Source: Nitrospirota bacterium
GTDB taxonomy: Bacteria > Nitrospirota > Thermodesulfovibrionia > Thermodesulfovibrionales > Dissulfurispiraceae
Reading direction: 5' to 3'
Length of the DNA: 64,000 nt
Assembly: GCA_963790025.1 (NCBI GenBank)
Contig: CAWBMP010000005.1
Span: 192,001 to 256,000, forward strand
Translations under genes and position numbers: made by a program
Shown: positions 55,915 to 60,864 of the stretch, one piece after another
Position numbering within the stretch: the stretch's first letter is position 1
How the letters are laid out: every line of letters starts with the position of its first letter
The notes under the pieces: generated by a model
The model's database searches: none
The model's input: only the letters and a program-made list of their open reading frames with translations
What the model was told of the DNA's origin: nothing

Positions 55915-56667
55915 ATGGATAATTCGCGACGGGTATTGGTTTTCGGAAGTGGCGACGAGATGGCGGATTTTATGGTGGAGCGGTGGAGTGAACTCTCCAG
56001 TTCTGCCATCGAAAGCAGGGGGTATTTTGCTGCGGCCCTTTCGGGAGGAGAAACACCGGTCCGTTTTTACCGCAAACTTGCTGCGCGGGGAGCAGGTTTT
56101 CAGTGGAACAAGATACATCTGTTCCTCGCCGACGAGCGCTTTGTCCACCCGGACCATACTGACAGCAATTACCATTTGCTCCGTGAGACACTCTTAAAGG
56201 ACCTGCCGGTCCCCGGCAGTAATATCCATGCGGTGACTACCGATGGACCGGACGCGCAGTTATCGGCGAGAAAATATGAAGAGGAAATGAAAAAGTTTTT
56301 TAAGACCACGGGGGAAGGCCTTCCCGAATTTGACCTTATTATGCTGGGCCTTGGTACGGACGGACATACCGCATCGCTTTTTCCAGGGGATAAGGCACTC
56401 GATGATACACGGCATCTTGCTTGTGCAGTGGACCTTGACAATGTCCGGCACGACCGGATTACGCTGACACTTCCGGTGATCAACAATGCCCGTATGGTGG
56501 TATTTCTCGTTAGCGGAAAGACCAAGGCATCGGTGTTCCGCGATGTTGTGGAGAGTAGGGACCACCATTTTCCCGCCTCACTGGTGGACCCTGAGAAGGG
56601 GAGCTTGTTGTTTCTCGCCGATACGGAGGCCGCACAGTATTTGACTGAAACTCACATCCGGCGATAA
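55915..56667 (+). CDS. pgl: 6-phosphogluconolactonase
   Basis: LSGGETP, DERFV...SNY, LGLGTDGHTASLFP, RITLTLP. Confidence 0.95.
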   Translation: MDNSRRVLVFGSGDEMADFMVERWSELSSSAIESRGYFAAALSGGETPVRFYRKLAARGAGFQWNKIHLFLADERFVHPDHTDSNYHLLRETLLKDLPVPGSNIHAVTTDGPDAQLSARKYEEEMKKFFKTTGEGLPEFDLIMLGLGTDGHTASLFPGDKALDDTRHLACAVDLDNVRHDRITLTLPVINNARMVVFLVSGKTKASVFRDVVESRDHHFPASLVDPEKGSLLFLADTEAAQYLTETHIRR

Positions 56668-56881
56668 GGAGTTGTCATTCGCACTCTGACTTACTTTGCC
56701 ATAACGGCAATCAACTTTAGTAGACACTATTTGATCTGGTAGTATACAACCAAGTATAGCTTGCACCTGATACTTGACACCGGAGATTCTTTTTCAGGAC
56801 TCTCGATTTTCGTTACTAACCCTCGGACTTATGCTGATGAGCAGGATTGTGAAAGCTTAGATATGTCGTCCATGAGAAAGC

Positions 56882-56908
56882 TAAATGCACGAACGCAAGC
56901 CTGACCCT
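56882..56908 (+). repeat. orphan copy of the RAYT terminal repeat
   Basis: TAAATGCACGAACGCAAGCCTGACCCT, 24/27 to the reverse complement of 57363-57389. Confidence 0.8.
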
Positions 56909-57128
56909 CAAGCCTTCCCAGTATCTTTTCCCCAAGTGCGAGGATGTGTTTGTTTGCTTCTGGGTTGGGGAGTCCAGGCTTGTTTTCTGATAAGATTTTA
57001 CGGATACTTTCTGCGGACTTTAAGATAACATCGTGATCAAAGCTGTATCAGCTAAAACTGATCGGAAAGGGAGCGCTGGAAGGAGTATAATAAATCATAA
57101 ATAAAAAACAATTTAATTCGGAGGAAAT

Positions 57129-57293
57129 ATGATTATGACTGTAGAAGAAGCTAAAAAGAAATGGTGTCCTTTATTCAGTATTATGAAAGATAGTCACACA
57201 TACTGCGAGGCATCTGACTGCATGATGTGGAAAGCGGTCAGGATGGGTGACGTTATGGAAGGATGCTGCAGTCTTGCGGGGAGGGAAGCATAA
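57129..57293 (+). CDS. small Cys-rich protein (54 aa, MIMTVEEAKKKWCP...CEASDCMMW...GCCSLAG)
   Basis: RBS GGAGG; five Cys; below the ORF-track cutoff. Confidence 0.6.
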   Translation: MIMTVEEAKKKWCPLFSIMKDSHTYCEASDCMMWKAVRMGDVMEGCCSLAGREA

Positions 57294-57362
57294 AGATTAA
57301 AGAATCAAGGGGAATCACGAACACAAATGAAAGGAGGATTGAGCCCATGAAAAGGAAACAAT

Positions 57363-58343
57363 GGGGTCAGGCTTGCATACGTGCATTTAAGTGTACTATA
57401 TTTTGGCATCATGGCAAGGCCGCCACGCATAGAATTTCCCGGAGCGTTTTATCATGTAATAGTCCGTGGCAATCTGAAGCAGGACATTTTTATAGATGAA
57501 CAAGATAGGCTTGAGTATCTTGAGCGCATAAAACGTTATAAAGAAAAATGCGGATTTATTTTTTATGCATACATCCTTATGACAAACCATGTACATTTAC
57601 TCATTGAGACCCCCAAAGCGCCTTTATCAAAGATAATGCAACTTATAAATTTCACATACACACAGTATTTTAATAAGAAATACAATAAGGTCGGGCATCT
57701 TTTTCAGGGCAGGTATAAGTCTTTTCTGTGTGACCGGGACGAATATCTTTTAGGGCTGCTCAGATATATACATCTGAATCCGGTACGTGCAGGAATAGTA
57801 AGCAGACCGGAGGCTTACAAATGGAGCAGTCATAATCAATACTTAAAGGAAGGTAATGGGATAGTTGACGCTGAGAGGGTTTTAAGGCTTTTTTCGGAGA
57901 AAGTATCAGAAGCTCGGAAGCGATACAGAGGTTTTGTAAAAGAGGCGATAGGCGCTGAAAGAGACGACTCGTTTTACAAGGCTGTAGATCAGCAGATAGT
58001 AGGAGGGGATAAGTTTTTAGAAATAATAGAAGATAAAATTGATGAATTGGACAGGCCGATAAGAAAGCTTACGTTGAAAAAGGCCATAAAGGCAGTTGAG
58101 GAAGTGACAGGCGTACTTTGGGATGAGATAAGCTCCCGAAGCAGGAGCAAGGAAGTAATATTTGCGCGAGGATTATTAGTTGGGGTATGGAGAGAGGCGG
58201 GGCATCGGATGGTGAACTTACAGCCCCAACTGAGGAGGGACTTATCAGTGCTTTCAAGATTGTCAAAAATCTCAGAGAGTGAAAGAGGACGAAAAGCCAT
58301 GAAACAAATATTTCACATGCTAAATGCATGAACGCAAGCCTGA
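57363..58343 (+). mobile_element. RAYT-like element bounded by 27-bp inverted repeats (right repeat split by IS110)
   Basis: Left GGGGTCAGGCTTGCATACGTGCATTTA; right TAAATGCATGAACGCAAGCCTGA plus CCCC at 59727-59730. Confidence 0.75.
57411..58331 (+). CDS. REP-associated / IS200-like HUH Y1 transposase with C-terminal HTH
   Basis: MARPPR....GAFYHVIVRGN, LMTNHVHLL (HUH), GHLFQGRYKS, YIHLNPVRAG, Y.WSS. Confidence 0.9.
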   Translation: MARPPRIEFPGAFYHVIVRGNLKQDIFIDEQDRLEYLERIKRYKEKCGFIFYAYILMTNHVHLLIETPKAPLSKIMQLINFTYTQYFNKKYNKVGHLFQGRYKSFLCDRDEYLLGLLRYIHLNPVRAGIVSRPEAYKWSSHNQYLKEGNGIVDAERVLRLFSEKVSEARKRYRGFVKEAIGAERDDSFYKAVDQQIVGGDKFLEIIEDKIDELDRPIRKLTLKKAIKAVEEVTGVLWDEISSRSRSKEVIFARGLLVGVWREAGHRMVNLQPQLRRDLSVLSRLSKISESERGRKAMKQIFHMLNA

Positions 58344-59726
58344 ACATCCCGCTGGAATTTTCAATATATTTTTTCTTATTTAGATAAGATGTACCCTCTG
58401 TTCTCCTTCAGCATCTTGAAAATAACACGGCAAAGATGACGACCAAGCGCACGTAGTGCCTGGTTATGTTTCTTGCCTTCAGCTCTTTTTTTCTCATAAT
58501 ATTGTTGAGACTGCGGAACTTGTTTTCGGTGCCGATCTACGGCAACCATCATTGCGGCCTTAGCCCGAGTATTAACCTGCGTTGGTGGTTTTGATCCTTT
58601 TTGCTTGCCTGAACTATTGTCAAGATTCGCCATCCCAATATACAGAGCCAGACTTGCTTCGCTGCCAAAGCGCTCGATAGTTCCAATCTCTCCGGCGAGT
58701 TCAGATGTACAAATGGAACCGAATCCTGGAATGGTTGCGAGCGTTTGCGCAATATCCGAGCCGTGTGCAACACCCTCCATCTTTGCTTCAAGTGATTTTA
58801 TCTTGGCATGGAGTTCCATCACGCGGATTGCATCTTCCTGGATCATTTCACCGACCCACTCGACGTCGTGACTAAACTGTGCTGTTTTCTGCCATTCAAC
58901 AATAACAGAGGCATATTTCTTACCAATGCCCGGATCTTGCGGATAGTTGTTTCCCGCATGCGTGCAAGCGTGCGAAGGTCATCCGTGCTGGTCAGAAATC
59001 CAAGAAACCACATATTGTCGGCCTCACCGGTAATCTCCAGAAGTCCCGGACATACAGCGTGAAGATCGGCCTGTAGGTTGTTTACTACCCGTACTCGCTC
59101 ATCGACCAAACGACGCCGGCGCCGTGATAGCCGCTTTAGAATGTCGTTGTCCCGCGGCGTTTTGCGTACCTCCTGCAGCACATCCTTGGCTATCGGCAGA
59201 TGATCTCGAAGCTGAAAAAGCTCCAGTCCTTTCCTTGCGTCGATTGCATCGGTCTTCGCGGCACCGGGGAATATCTCCTTGAATCGAGCAAGCTTGAGAT
59301 TGTTGATATTGAAGAGGCGATAATTGCGGGCTCGAACGAGCGTGTCCAGCGGACGTGCGTAGCCGTTGAAGCCCTCCATTGCTACGGCAACGGGACAACT
59401 AAACCTTTGCTCCTGCTTCTCGATGCGACAGAAGAATTGCCGGAACCCTTCAGGTTCATGCACGATTGAGAATTCATCGAGGACTTCACCGCTGGATAGG
59501 CCGATTGCAACGTTGTGACTGCGGCAGCCAATATCGACGCTTACACGCAGTTCGAGGGGATCATCTTTTTTCATGTAGTCTCCTTTGCAGACAAGATTAT
59601 CATCCTCAGGTCTCGTCTACTTACAGAGCCACATTTGGCACCATCCCGGTCGACCCTTTTGAGGATGATGCAGATGACGGAGGCGGCATTTCAGACTCAA
59701 GTGAGCCTGAATGAACAGGCCACTGA
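58340..59726 (-). mobile_element. IS110-family element (about 1.39 kb) flanked by a CTGA core
   Basis: CTGA at both junctions; removing the element restores the RAYT terminal repeat; about 150-nt structured leader upstream of the transposase. Confidence 0.8.
58376..59574 (-). pseudogene. IS110-family recombinase with a 1-nt frameshift near 58931
   Basis: DEDD domain VDIG, AMEG, KTDAIDA; C-terminal TIPGFG...SSGK; adding one C restores KIPGIGKKYA and joins the two ORFs. Confidence 0.85.
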
Positions 59727-60070
59727 CCCCACAAGCCACACCCCCGTTAAGCATATCTTACATGAATAAAGCTGCCATAGTCATCTGCATAAATCCTATG
59801 GTAGACCCCAGCACCAGCAATCTTTCGAGCTTTACAAAAAAGGTTACCCCGTGAAGCAGATACGGGATACTGTAGAAAAGGAATTCAAATAATAACTCCC
59901 ATATGGTGGCAGTTGATGTACAAAACCAACACTGCCGCTGAGATGGCCGGGACGTTTGTTCCTTAGTGAACATCCGTTTCTCGGCTATGCTCATCGATGC
60001 GTGTTATAGAAAAAGCACCTTGTAACCCCCTAATTCACAACGCAGACGACCGCCTGCCTTATGAGCAGTA

Positions 60071-60415
60071 TCAGGTGCAGCCAGCAGGTTGCGGAATCCC
60101 CGCATACCTGCAGATCCGTTGTAGAGGCTTTTCAGGGAATAGTGAGTACAGCACCTTTATCGAGTATCGCTCACTGCCCAACTGCCGGTTTAACCTTTTC
60201 ACAATCACTTTCGGCATCGGGCTAATGTTGAATGTTCGGTAATAATCGCGAGCAAAACGGATTACCTGCCAGTGTTCATCAGTCAGCAACATGCCGTCTG
60301 CCGCACTGTAATATTCGGCAACCTGCGGAGACCAGTCATCAGGGTTGGCAAGGAAGCCGTCGGCATCCAGCTCAATGGTTTTACCGCCTATCGTAATATG
60401 GTTGTTTGCATCCAT
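60071..60415 (-). CDS. DsrC/TusE family sulfur-relay protein with both C-terminal cysteines
   Basis: DADGFL....W, LTDEHW.VI...R.YY, LY.LFP, C-terminal CRYAGIPQPAGCT (Cx10C). Confidence 0.88.
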   Translation of the reverse strand: MDANNHITIGGKTIELDADGFLANPDDWSPQVAEYYSAADGMLLTDEHWQVIRFARDYYRTFNISPMPKVIVKRLNRQLGSERYSIKVLYSLFPEKPLQRICRYAGIPQPAGCT

Positions 60416-60864
60416 TGCTGACTTGATTCCTCATCTTTCGCATCAGGACTGTCGGTTCCGCACATGAATTAGTTCATCTCATAACCTACATTATTCTTGA
60501 TAAATTGTCGAGTCTCGCGCTGTGACGCTACCAGCCCTGCCTGCCTGTTGCCTCAAGTAAAAATCCATTCGAAAATATTTCTTTTTAACGGGTTACATCA
60601 CGCTATAAGCAGCCTGGCTTTCACTGTTATTTTTGAAAACTAGCAATGTAGTTGAGATGTTCGGAGCGCCAGTTACTTGGTGGAACAAATAATCCATGAG
60701 GGAATAAGAGCAGAACATTTTGATATGATGCCGCATGGCGATACTGTATAAAAGCGTCCACAGCATGACGAAATTGCTCCCTCCTTTAACGAAATAATAA
60801 ATAAATATCTGGAAGCTCTTAGATTAGTGACTATTCCAGCTAACAGCGTTTGCATAGGGCATCA

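Follow-up and report, generated by a model that had tools for sequence, protein, structure and literature searches.

A probable bridge-RNA-guided IS110 element at the tip of a TIRYT-type terminal repeat in a Nitrospirota genome

The locus and the ends of the element

The DNA analysed here is a stretch of 64,000 nt (the window; positions without a locus name refer to it) from contig CAWBMP010000005.1 of a Nitrospirota bacterium (GCA_963790025.1). Two mobile elements meet in it. One is an insertion sequence (IS) of the IS110 family, found as one copy within the 64-kb window. Its body occupies 58344–59803 on the minus strand (1,460 bp), between two copies of a core dinucleotide. The other carries a gene for a Y1 (HUH) tyrosine transposase at 57411–58331 on the plus strand. 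The IS is very probably a bridge-RNA-guided element whose insertion site, a TC core, is at the extreme tip of the right terminal inverted repeat (TIR) of a Y1 element of the TIRYT type, or TIRtron. A preliminary description, made from the sequence alone, had recognised an IS110 element that interrupts the terminal repeat of a Y1-transposase gene. This holds (Pfam DEDD_Tnp_IS110, 3.9e-22, and Transposase_20, 3.8e-15, for the IS; Y1_Tnp, 3.8e-16, for the Y1 gene), and an intact target is present at 57362–57375. The strings quoted there are also in place: GAACGCAAGC-CTGA-ACATCCCG at 58330–58351, AACAGGCCA-CTGA-CCCCACAAGCC at 59714–59737, an uninterrupted repeat copy at 56891–56914, an inverted copy at 57363–57389, and AGCCTGAA at both 58337–58344 and 59704–59711.

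The Y1 gene is intact and encodes 306 aa from its ATG. The protein is weakly matched by Bac_DnaA_C at residues 235–271 (E 3.1e-4; 21.1 bits against a cut-off of 31.5), and it scores 79.2 bits with NCBIfam REP_Tyr_transpos, the cut-off of which is 80. The gene is flanked by an inverted repeat pair, 57364–57389 and 58321–58343 (23 nt, 87% complementary). The left terminal repeat of the Y1 element is located at 57362–57389 on the plus strand. It contains a perfect 14-nt target, TGGGGTCAGGCTTG, at 57362–57375, which represents an empty site. The remainder of the right terminal repeat (…TAAATGCATGAACGCAAGCCT) is at 58319–58341 on the plus strand (repeat families D1 and I2). An orphan, uninterrupted copy is seen at 56880–56909 on the plus strand, and its minus strand contains the target-like site GAGGGTCAGGCTTG, whose left half has 2 mismatches. 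When up to 3 mismatches are allowed, a 17-nt pattern is found at 56892–56908 (plus), 57363–57379 (minus), and 58331–58347 (plus); 0.13 matches are expected, and 0 of 100 shuffles reach three. The orphan copy and the right repeat form a direct repeat pair of 30 nt (56880–56909 and 58319–58348, 90%). The inverted repeat pairs with 57364–57389 are 26 nt (92%) and 23 nt (87%) long.

The two uninterrupted repeats read GGGGTCAGGCTTGC and AGGGTCAGGCTTGC without a break, that is, (G/A)GGGTCAGGCTTG. The tip is GGGGTCAG in the left repeat and in the restored right repeat, and AGGGTCAG in the orphan copy. GGGGTCAG fits the tip motif GGGGWSAS (PMC3733652, PMC6006769; published work is cited here and below from the parts of each text that were available). 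According to PMC3733652, RAYT-like genes flanked by TIRs sharing this tip constitute the TIRYT/TIRtron elements. Most TIRYT belong to TnpA-REP subclass 2.1, which has a C-terminal region resembling Bac_DnaA_C or a helix-turn-helix (HTH; HTH_23/HTH_28) and lacks REP-like hairpins (PMC6006769). The preliminary description had labelled the host a RAYT element with repeats of the REP (repetitive extragenic palindromic) type. This label is imprecise: the Y1 gene and the inverted repeats are there, but the repeat is not palindromic and has the GGGGWSAS tip. Judged by these sequence features, the host would be better called a TIRtron or TIRYT element. The repeat was considered as a REP hairpin and rejected; its DNA folds into a 4-bp stem, at −2.7 and −3.8 kcal/mol (z +0.14 and −0.60), about as shuffled sequences do. 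No GTAG-type head is seen in the repeat copies.

A degenerate and oppositely oriented repeat tip, GGGGAGTCCAGGCTTG, lies at 56967–56987, about 60 nt from the orphan copy at 56880–56909. The two may be a decayed repeat dimer. The fold of 56870–57000 is no better than those of shuffles (z −0.51).

The insertion splits the tip motif itself, GGGGTC|AG. The stop codon of the Y1 gene (58329–58331) precedes the insertion point by 12 nt, and four codons after it, at 58341–58343, there is another TGA in the same frame. The open reading frame (ORF) of the Y1 gene is undamaged, while the last four bases of the repeat have been moved 1.46 kb from the rest.

Relatives of the IS were collected from a species-representative genome collection, with the 243-aa N-terminal ORF of the transposase as the query; the genome of the window is outside this set. 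The scan yielded 129 matched stretches, 79 of which encode a relative, with up to 87% amino-acid identity. Their hosts include Nitrospirota, Thermodesulfovibrionales, Syntrophaceae, Geobacter, Binatia, Nitrospira, Acidobacteriota, Verrucomicrobiia, Chlamydiae, and others. These relative loci are designated L001, L002, and so on. The "left" end (LE) of the element is the 5' end on the transposase strand, near 59803, and the "right" end (RE) is near 58344. Alignment A3 consists of the window and 53 of the 59 distinct left ends (54 sequences), and omits the near-duplicates L003, L017, L054, L055, L060, and L067. Directly upstream of the L001 copy is a 136-nt fragment in inverse orientation (L001:3618–3753), 87.5% identical to 59124–59259 of the window. 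It matches a part inside the transposase gene and is what remains of a further copy of this IS.

The transposase is encoded by two ORFs on the minus strand. The N-terminal ORF (58843–59574, 243 aa) is DEDD/RuvC-like, and the match to PF01548 (DEDD_Tnp_IS110, 3.9e-22) covers its residues 12–176. The C-terminal ORF (58376–58846, 156 aa) contains Transposase_20 (PF02371, 3.8e-15) and is in another frame. Both match NCBIfam NF033542, "IS110 family RNA-guided transposase": the N-terminal ORF with 67.8 bits at profile positions 2–172, and the C-terminal ORF with 92.9 bits at positions 186–342. Each fragment stays below the cut-off of 140 bits because the gene is split; the intact relative L001 reaches 159.3 bits. 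In a three-frame translation the frame changes at …TIRKI|PGIGKK…, where blastn alignments show a 1-nt gap. One base is missing here, at 58933–58934 on the minus strand, in comparison with L001 and L002. The uninterrupted ORF characteristic of the IS110 family is thereby lacking in the window. L001, L004, L005, and L007 have single ORFs of 398–399 aa, and the ORF of L002 is truncated too.

The window copy is either dead or affected by an assembly error. That the frameshift is an assembly or sequencing error, and the copy in fact active, is somewhat unlikely, although a single base missing from a run of C (CC in the window, CCCC or TCCC in relatives) would suit such an error, as would the otherwise open and well conserved ORFs (87% amino-acid identity to L001 over the 243-aa ORF). 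Other relatives are degenerate as well, however, as L002 with its stop at 291 aa illustrates.

The ends of the IS are defined by homology to L001–L005 and L007, by the junction alignments A1 and A2, and by a left-end profile. In blastn, the homology to these six closest loci spans the window from 59809/59810 to 58335–58355 and is unbroken at 59722. More distant loci still extend to 59747–59750. The left-end profile (nhmmer) has 74 matches, which mostly begin at profile positions 1–6. On the transposase strand, the left junction reads [unrelated flank]-TGGGG-TC-TACCATAGG… and the right junction …CCAGCGGGATGT-TC-AG(G)CTTG-[unrelated flank]. The two junctions, …TGGGG-TC-TACCAT… and …GGGATGT-TC-AGGCTTG…, share nothing but TC, and this applies to the relatives as well as to the window. 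In the window, the two copies of TC are at 59804–59805 (left) and 58342–58343 (right) on the minus strand, and both read GA on the plus strand. The left target half TGGGG (59806–59810, minus strand) once formed the tip of the Y1 element's right terminal repeat, from which it is now detached. The right target half AGGCTTG (58341–58335, minus strand) is the end of the repeat remainder. Flanks are unrelated outside TGGGG-TC…TC-AG, and the 20 columns upstream of TGGGG show no conservation in A3, the flank being different at each locus. The repeat search of the window lists no inverted repeats joining the two ends of the element. Excision at 58344–59803 restores the repeat, …GCAAGCCTGA|CCCCAGC…, whose tip equals the intact one at 57362–57375 and has 2 mismatches against the orphan copy. 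The precise insertion into the repeat, as previously described, is correct, and so is the left junction in window orientation to within 2 nt, since the body starts at 58344. The right junction is not.

The probable bridge RNA and its guides

The non-coding left end of the IS is 229 nt long (59803–59575). Covariation places a bridge-RNA region at 59590–59796 on its minus strand, with putative RNA ends. The structure written from A3 contains 39 pairs in 7 helices, with 95.3% of the cells paired. Among these pairs, 26 change on both sides, in 152 cells. None of 500 shuffles reaches any of five measures of the structure. When the 3' partners are slid by 1–3 columns, pairing drops to 36.9–48.7%. 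RNAalifold returns the same main stems (33 pairs, 14 with compensatory changes), and the window sequence by itself folds at −79.6 kcal/mol (z −3.78). Pairs between the GGG of the left guide and part of the right guide (columns 156–158/193–195), also returned by RNAalifold, were not adopted: none of them changes on both sides, and each segment has its match in the DNA flanks instead. Two internal loops are enclosed by the helices, first the target-binding and then the donor-binding loop, and the loop sequences behave as published for IS621.

In IS621, each loop carries a 5' guide that reads like the top strand and a 3' guide complementary to that strand, with the core included (PMC11208160). 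The guides in the window follow the published definition of the left and right target guides (LTG and RTG) and the left and right donor guides (LDG and RDG), together with the junction promoter (PMC11208160). All four are on the minus strand. The putative LTG on the 5' side of the target-binding loop, TGGGGTC (59725–59731), is identical at 7 of 7 positions to the left target and core. The putative RTG on the 3' side, TGAGTCTGA (59691–59699), pairs with TCAGGCTTG at 9 of 9 positions: 2 in the core, 4 Watson-Crick, and 3 G-U. In the donor-binding loop, the putative LDG CGGGATG (59642–59648, 5' side) has all its 7 nt in common with the right end (GCGGGATGT at 58352–58344). The putative RDG GTAGA (59616–59620, 3' side) is complementary to the core and the start of the left end, TC-TAC. 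All 54 of 54 sequences are consistent at left-end position 3, where 46 have C with G in the guide and 8 have T with A. From these matches, the target loop is predicted to specify TGGGG-TC-AGGCTTG, that is, the conserved GGGGWSAS-type repeat tip, and the guides of the predicted donor loop match the joined ends of the element itself, GGGATGT-TC-TACCAT. Two observations support the earlier suggestion of an IS programmed against Y1 element ends: the guides match the repeat tip, and relatives are located in similar repeats beside homologous Y1 genes.

The correspondence between guides and flanks can be followed across the family. In 38 distinct guide/flank pairs, from the 39 A3 loci with a readable right flank, positions 3–9 of the RTG pair with the right target (RT) in 198 of 266 cells, against a permuted mean of 171.8 (sd 4.3). 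This is reached by 0 of 10,000 permutations. With Watson-Crick pairs only, the count is 158 against 118.7. Clear cases are L015/L016 (flank AGAGTAA, 7/7) and L013/L048 (6/7). On the left target (LT) side, the 7 nt before the core are identical to the LTG in 244 of 357 cells, against 222.8 (sd 4.8), reached by 1 of 10,000 permutations; neither permutation figure is to be read as a probability, as relatedness among the sequences is ignored in these tests.

Nine copies in one chromosome of Chlamydiae (L053–L058, L060, L061, and L067) represent a divergent member with a different repeated sequence as the target. Their junctions are …CCCT-TC-TACCAT and GGGATG-TC-GGGCCTGG, and the target is …CCCT-TC-GGGCCTGG (…CCCT-TC-GGGCC…). 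Their guides are changed to match, with …GCCCTT… and the complement of TCGGGCC, and CCCT is seen in both the flank and the guide. The left flank of these copies is conserved over at least 25 nt. Based on these correspondences, the Chlamydiae copies can be regarded as a reprogrammed lineage of the clade, amplified within a single genome.

When the right and left ends are joined in silico, TTGAAA-17 nt-TACCAT appears. TTGAAA (58359–58364, minus strand) would be a −35-like half in the right end, as in IS621 (PMC11208160), and TACCAT (59798–59803, minus strand), the first six bases of the left end, a putative −10-like half. Both hexamers are conserved in A2 and A3. A promoter scan of the linear window gives 3 sites against 1.8 expected, none relevant at the element ends. 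The linear scan cannot show a junction promoter because it becomes visible only after the ends are joined. By analogy with IS621 (PMC11208160), the IS would be excised as a circle, and the joined ends would form the promoter TTGAAA-N17-TACCAT. A bridge RNA of about 200 nt could be transcribed from it, and the recombinase might then join the circle to a repeat tip by exchanging strands at TC.

Recurrence beside TIRYT genes and alternative readings

A tblastn search with the Y1 protein of the window finds a homologue in 10 of the 79 loci. Where the right flank is readable (46 loci), a Y1 gene lies 0–186 nt from the right end of the IS in eight, and the right end is always the one toward the gene. 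The gene has its 5' end toward the IS in L004, L009, L025, and L039 and its 3' end toward it in L011, L049, L050, and L052, as in the window. The stop codon of the Y1 gene overlaps the core (GA of TGA) in L011 (5335), L050 (5242), and L052 (5232), and it is preserved. On the far side of the gene, an intact inverted repeat is present in L004, L009, L011, L049, L050, and L052. These repeats start with (T/G)GGGGTCA(G/A)G and then resemble the right flank of the IS. In L001, L028, L035, and L044, the IS is in one of two closely spaced inverted repeats, with no gene, and in L022 a second copy of the repeat is found elsewhere in the locus, 5 kb away. The repeat pairs were probed with a one-base offset and up to 6 substitutions in 28, self-matches being ignored. 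Taken together, 13 of the 46 loci have a TIRYT gene or a paired repeat. The habitual landing site of this clade across phyla is the tip of these repeats.

Some further features are seen around these insertions. The Y1 gene beside the IS in L009 (5266–6033), probably a broken copy, stops after 76 codons, although similarity to the window protein extends as far as residue 255. Several left flanks contain 2–3 short tandem units, each ending with (T)GGGGTC, such as …AATGGGGTC-TCAGGTAATGGGGTC-[IS] in L025. They are located at L004:2266–2297, L014:3704–3735, L016:3737–3768, L024:3703–3734, L025:650–687, L037:3705–3736, and L039:3696–3735. In L011 (6330–6360), an empty repeat next to the Y1 gene has a similarly duplicated tip. 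Such duplications may have been left by recombination that took place repeatedly at the tip, or they may have been made by the Y1 enzyme. The right flanks of L001, L007, L027, L030, L036, L038, L040, and L047 contain TTGAC(A/T) about 8–20 nt past the core, as in AGGCATGACTATTGACTTA. This may be a conserved inner part of the repeat or a −35-like box.

It can be proposed, tentatively and with somewhat less than even confidence, that this whole clade of bridge-RNA IS110 elements is a specialised hyperparasite of TIRtrons, with its target loop fixed on the GGGGWSAS tip. The hosts would be Nitrospirota, Desulfobacterota-like, Binatia, Acidobacteriota, Verrucomicrobiota, gammaproteobacterial, and other lineages, and across all of them the tip would be the only part of the repeat preserved by TIRtrons. 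The insertion would probably disarm that end of the host element.

Several points weigh against a bridge-RNA-guided element aimed at TIRtron tips. Neither a Y1 gene nor a paired repeat is found in the available flanks of 33 of the 46 loci, where the repeat tip is recognised from the 14-nt motif alone. Among the 7 non-core pairs of the RTG with the right target in the window, 4 are Watson-Crick and 3 are G-U wobbles, so a tolerance of RNA-DNA wobble pairs in this clade has to be supposed. RTG pairing is poor at L002 (4/7), L004 (4/7), and L008 (3/7 without a bulge), and many flanks retain AGG(C/T)CTTG even where the guide would prefer otherwise. The LTG varies little, and its modest signal comes largely from one divergent lineage. 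The LDG mismatches the base before the core and the second base of the core. A scan of 56500–60500 against Rfam, on both strands and with E up to 1, gives no match. The window transposase is frameshifted, and this copy may never move again. Transcription, circle formation, and the chemistry of recombination would be as in IS621 by analogy.

The 33 loci without a Y1 gene or a paired repeat would fit another reading, in which the IS recognises just a short motif (GGGGTC-AGG; GGGGTCAGG sites) anywhere and its landing in Y1 repeats is incidental. The guides indeed specify only about 14 nt, and some flanks (L002, L015–L017, and L071) are unlike the repeat beyond the core. This reading is nevertheless improbable. 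It has to meet the eight loci within 0–186 nt of a homologous Y1 gene, with the right end always toward it, the intact inverted repeat on the other side in six loci, the four insertions in an arm of a close inverted pair, and the second copy in L022. Such a Y1 gene is presumably rare per genome, and adjacency at this rate would be unexpected by chance.

Another possibility is that TGGGG belongs to the element and not to the target, so that the IS starts at 59810 and recognises only TC-AGGCTTG. TGGGG or nGGGG precedes the core in most loci, and conservation alone cannot discriminate the two cases. The repeats can, and they make this possibility very remote. Both uninterrupted repeats of the window read (G/A)GGGTCAGGCTTG unbroken, and so do the intact repeats beside Y1 genes in L004, L009, L011, L027, L049, L050, and L052. 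The published TIR motif likewise begins with GGGG (PMC3733652). Besides, the bases of the flank differ between loci (AGAGG, GACGG, TCGTG, CCCT…) and those of the left end proper are constant; in the Chlamydiae copies the flank bases change along with the guide.

The anatomy proposed in the preliminary description, namely a body at 58344–59722, a 4-nt core CTGA/TCAG, and 59727–59737 as the other half of the repeat, is practically untenable: deleting 58344–59726 does give a sequence like the orphan repeat, including ACAAGCC versus TCAAGCC, but 59727–59803 is conserved and contiguous with the remaining left end in more than 60 loci of many phyla, the homology of relatives is unbroken to 59803–59810 and flanks diverge only beyond 59810, and the covarying, compensatory helices 59788–59782/59676–59670 and 59747–59741/59683–59677 straddle 59722–59726, therefore excluding a boundary there. 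The resemblance of the orphan flank to a relic of the left end of the IS (ACAAGCC/TCAAGCC) is at the chance level, with a local alignment score of 18 that 70 of 300 shuffles equal or exceed. The sequence CTGACCCCACAAGCC (59723–59737, plus strand), at which the right end had been drawn, is inside the element. It consists of the LTG and the adjoining GGCT, a structural segment of the RNA that is invariant. CTGACCCCACAAGCC resembles the target because the guide of a bridge RNA copies the target by design, and for this reason the false excision seemed to restore the repeat.

The right end had been placed at 59722/59726, about 80 nt short of the true end at 59803. The core is the duplicated 2-nt TC (GA on the plus strand) instead of CTGA/TCAG. 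The donor deduced from that boundary, GCGGGATGT-TCAG-TGGCCTG, is replaced by GGGATGT-TC-TACCAT. The other boundary once considered, at the AGCCTGAA of 59704–59711, falls within the bridge-RNA hairpin between the two target guides. Homologous copies ending elsewhere had been named as the observation that would speak against the proposed boundary, and they do end elsewhere, at the equivalent of 59803/59805. For annotation, this means that a bridge RNA necessarily holds a copy of its own target, and the boundary of an IS110 element can be misplaced at the guide. Here the error amounted to about 80 nt, together with a wrong core and a wrong donor.

Relation to known systems

IS621 of E. coli, as described in PMC11208160, resembles the IS of the window in several respects. 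Its recombinase combines DEDD and Transposase_20 domains. Its bridge RNA is in the left end, with the target-binding loop before the donor-binding loop, a 5' guide in sense orientation, and a complementary 3' guide. A 2-nt core is present at both junctions, and the promoter is split between the right and left ends. The natural target is a short repeat associated with a Y1 transposase (REP). The core is CT in IS621 and TC in the window IS. The RTG of IS621 comprises four bases in the analysis of PMC11208160, whereas nine are paired in the window. The target of IS621 is a REP hairpin, in contrast to the non-palindromic TIRtron tip, and the hosts of the window clade are Nitrospirota, Desulfobacterota-type, and other environmental lineages instead of E. 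coli.

ISPpu10 and ISPpu9 of Pseudomonas putida are also bridge-RNA-guided IS110 elements, and all their copies are within one family of intergenic repeats (10.64898/2026.03.19.712850, PMC8450116). A natural mismatch at the donor-binding interface is reported for them (10.64898/2026.03.19.712850). The text available of the ISPpu10 preprint (10.64898/2026.03.19.712850) does not mention RAYT, while the window IS adjoins the Y1 gene itself. Their target is a REP stem-loop that is reported to contribute to recognition, unlike the window repeat, which folds about as shuffles do (a 4-bp stem).

IS4321 and IS5075, of the IS1111 branch, are inserted in the terminal inverted repeats of Tn21-family transposons. 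They share with the window IS the membership in the IS110/IS1111 superfamily and the use of the terminal repeat of another transposon as a specific target. They differ in that they belong to another subgroup, their guide RNA is downstream of the gene, the host is a DDE transposon of the Tn3 family, and the position within the repeat is different.

The host element of the window IS corresponds to the TIRtron/TIRYT elements of Di Nocera et al. 2013 (PMC3733652) and Quentin et al. 2018 (PMC6006769, subclass 2.1). The shared features are a RAYT-related Y1 transposase, TIRs with a GGGGWSAS tip, and repeats that are sometimes dimers; a C-terminal HTH region like Bac_DnaA_C may be a further one, given the weak match of the window protein. 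In the parts of these papers that were available, PMC3733652 does not mention IS110 and PMC6006769 mentions it once, as a comparator family, and neither contains IS110 insertions in TIRtron repeats.

The preference of IS110 elements for REP repeats is established for IS621 (PMC11208160; reference list of PMC2817692) and ISPpu10 (10.64898/2026.03.19.712850). In the literature searched, a scope that subscription journals and ISfinder lie beyond, no link between IS110 or bridge RNA and TIRYT/TIRtron was found, and "bridge RNA" occurs together with "tyrosine transposase" only in the IS621 paper and its preprint. In the supplements of PMC11208160, the target motif has a few unrelated matches and none with TGGGGTCAGG in the target list; these supplements were partly covered, and the clade may be there. 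The mechanism is of the known IS621 type and is not new in itself. The target class, the TIRYT/TIRtron tip, appears to be undescribed in the literature searched.

The habit of IS110 elements of living in REP repeats, seen in IS621 and ISPpu10, is hereby extended to the sister system TIRYT/TIRtron, recurrently across phyla. It illustrates in a simple way how the conserved tip of one transposon family can serve another as a safe landing site. The clade also provides a natural set of matched guide/target/donor triplets with a TC core. GGGGTC|AG followed by the IS can serve as a marker for locating TIRtron repeats in poorly studied genomes.

Near the host element, a small cysteine-rich ORF of about 54 aa is seen by eye at 57130–57294, after a Shine-Dalgarno-like GGAGG. 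The orphan repeat and the Y1 element's left repeat are 455 nt apart, and the ORF is in this interval.

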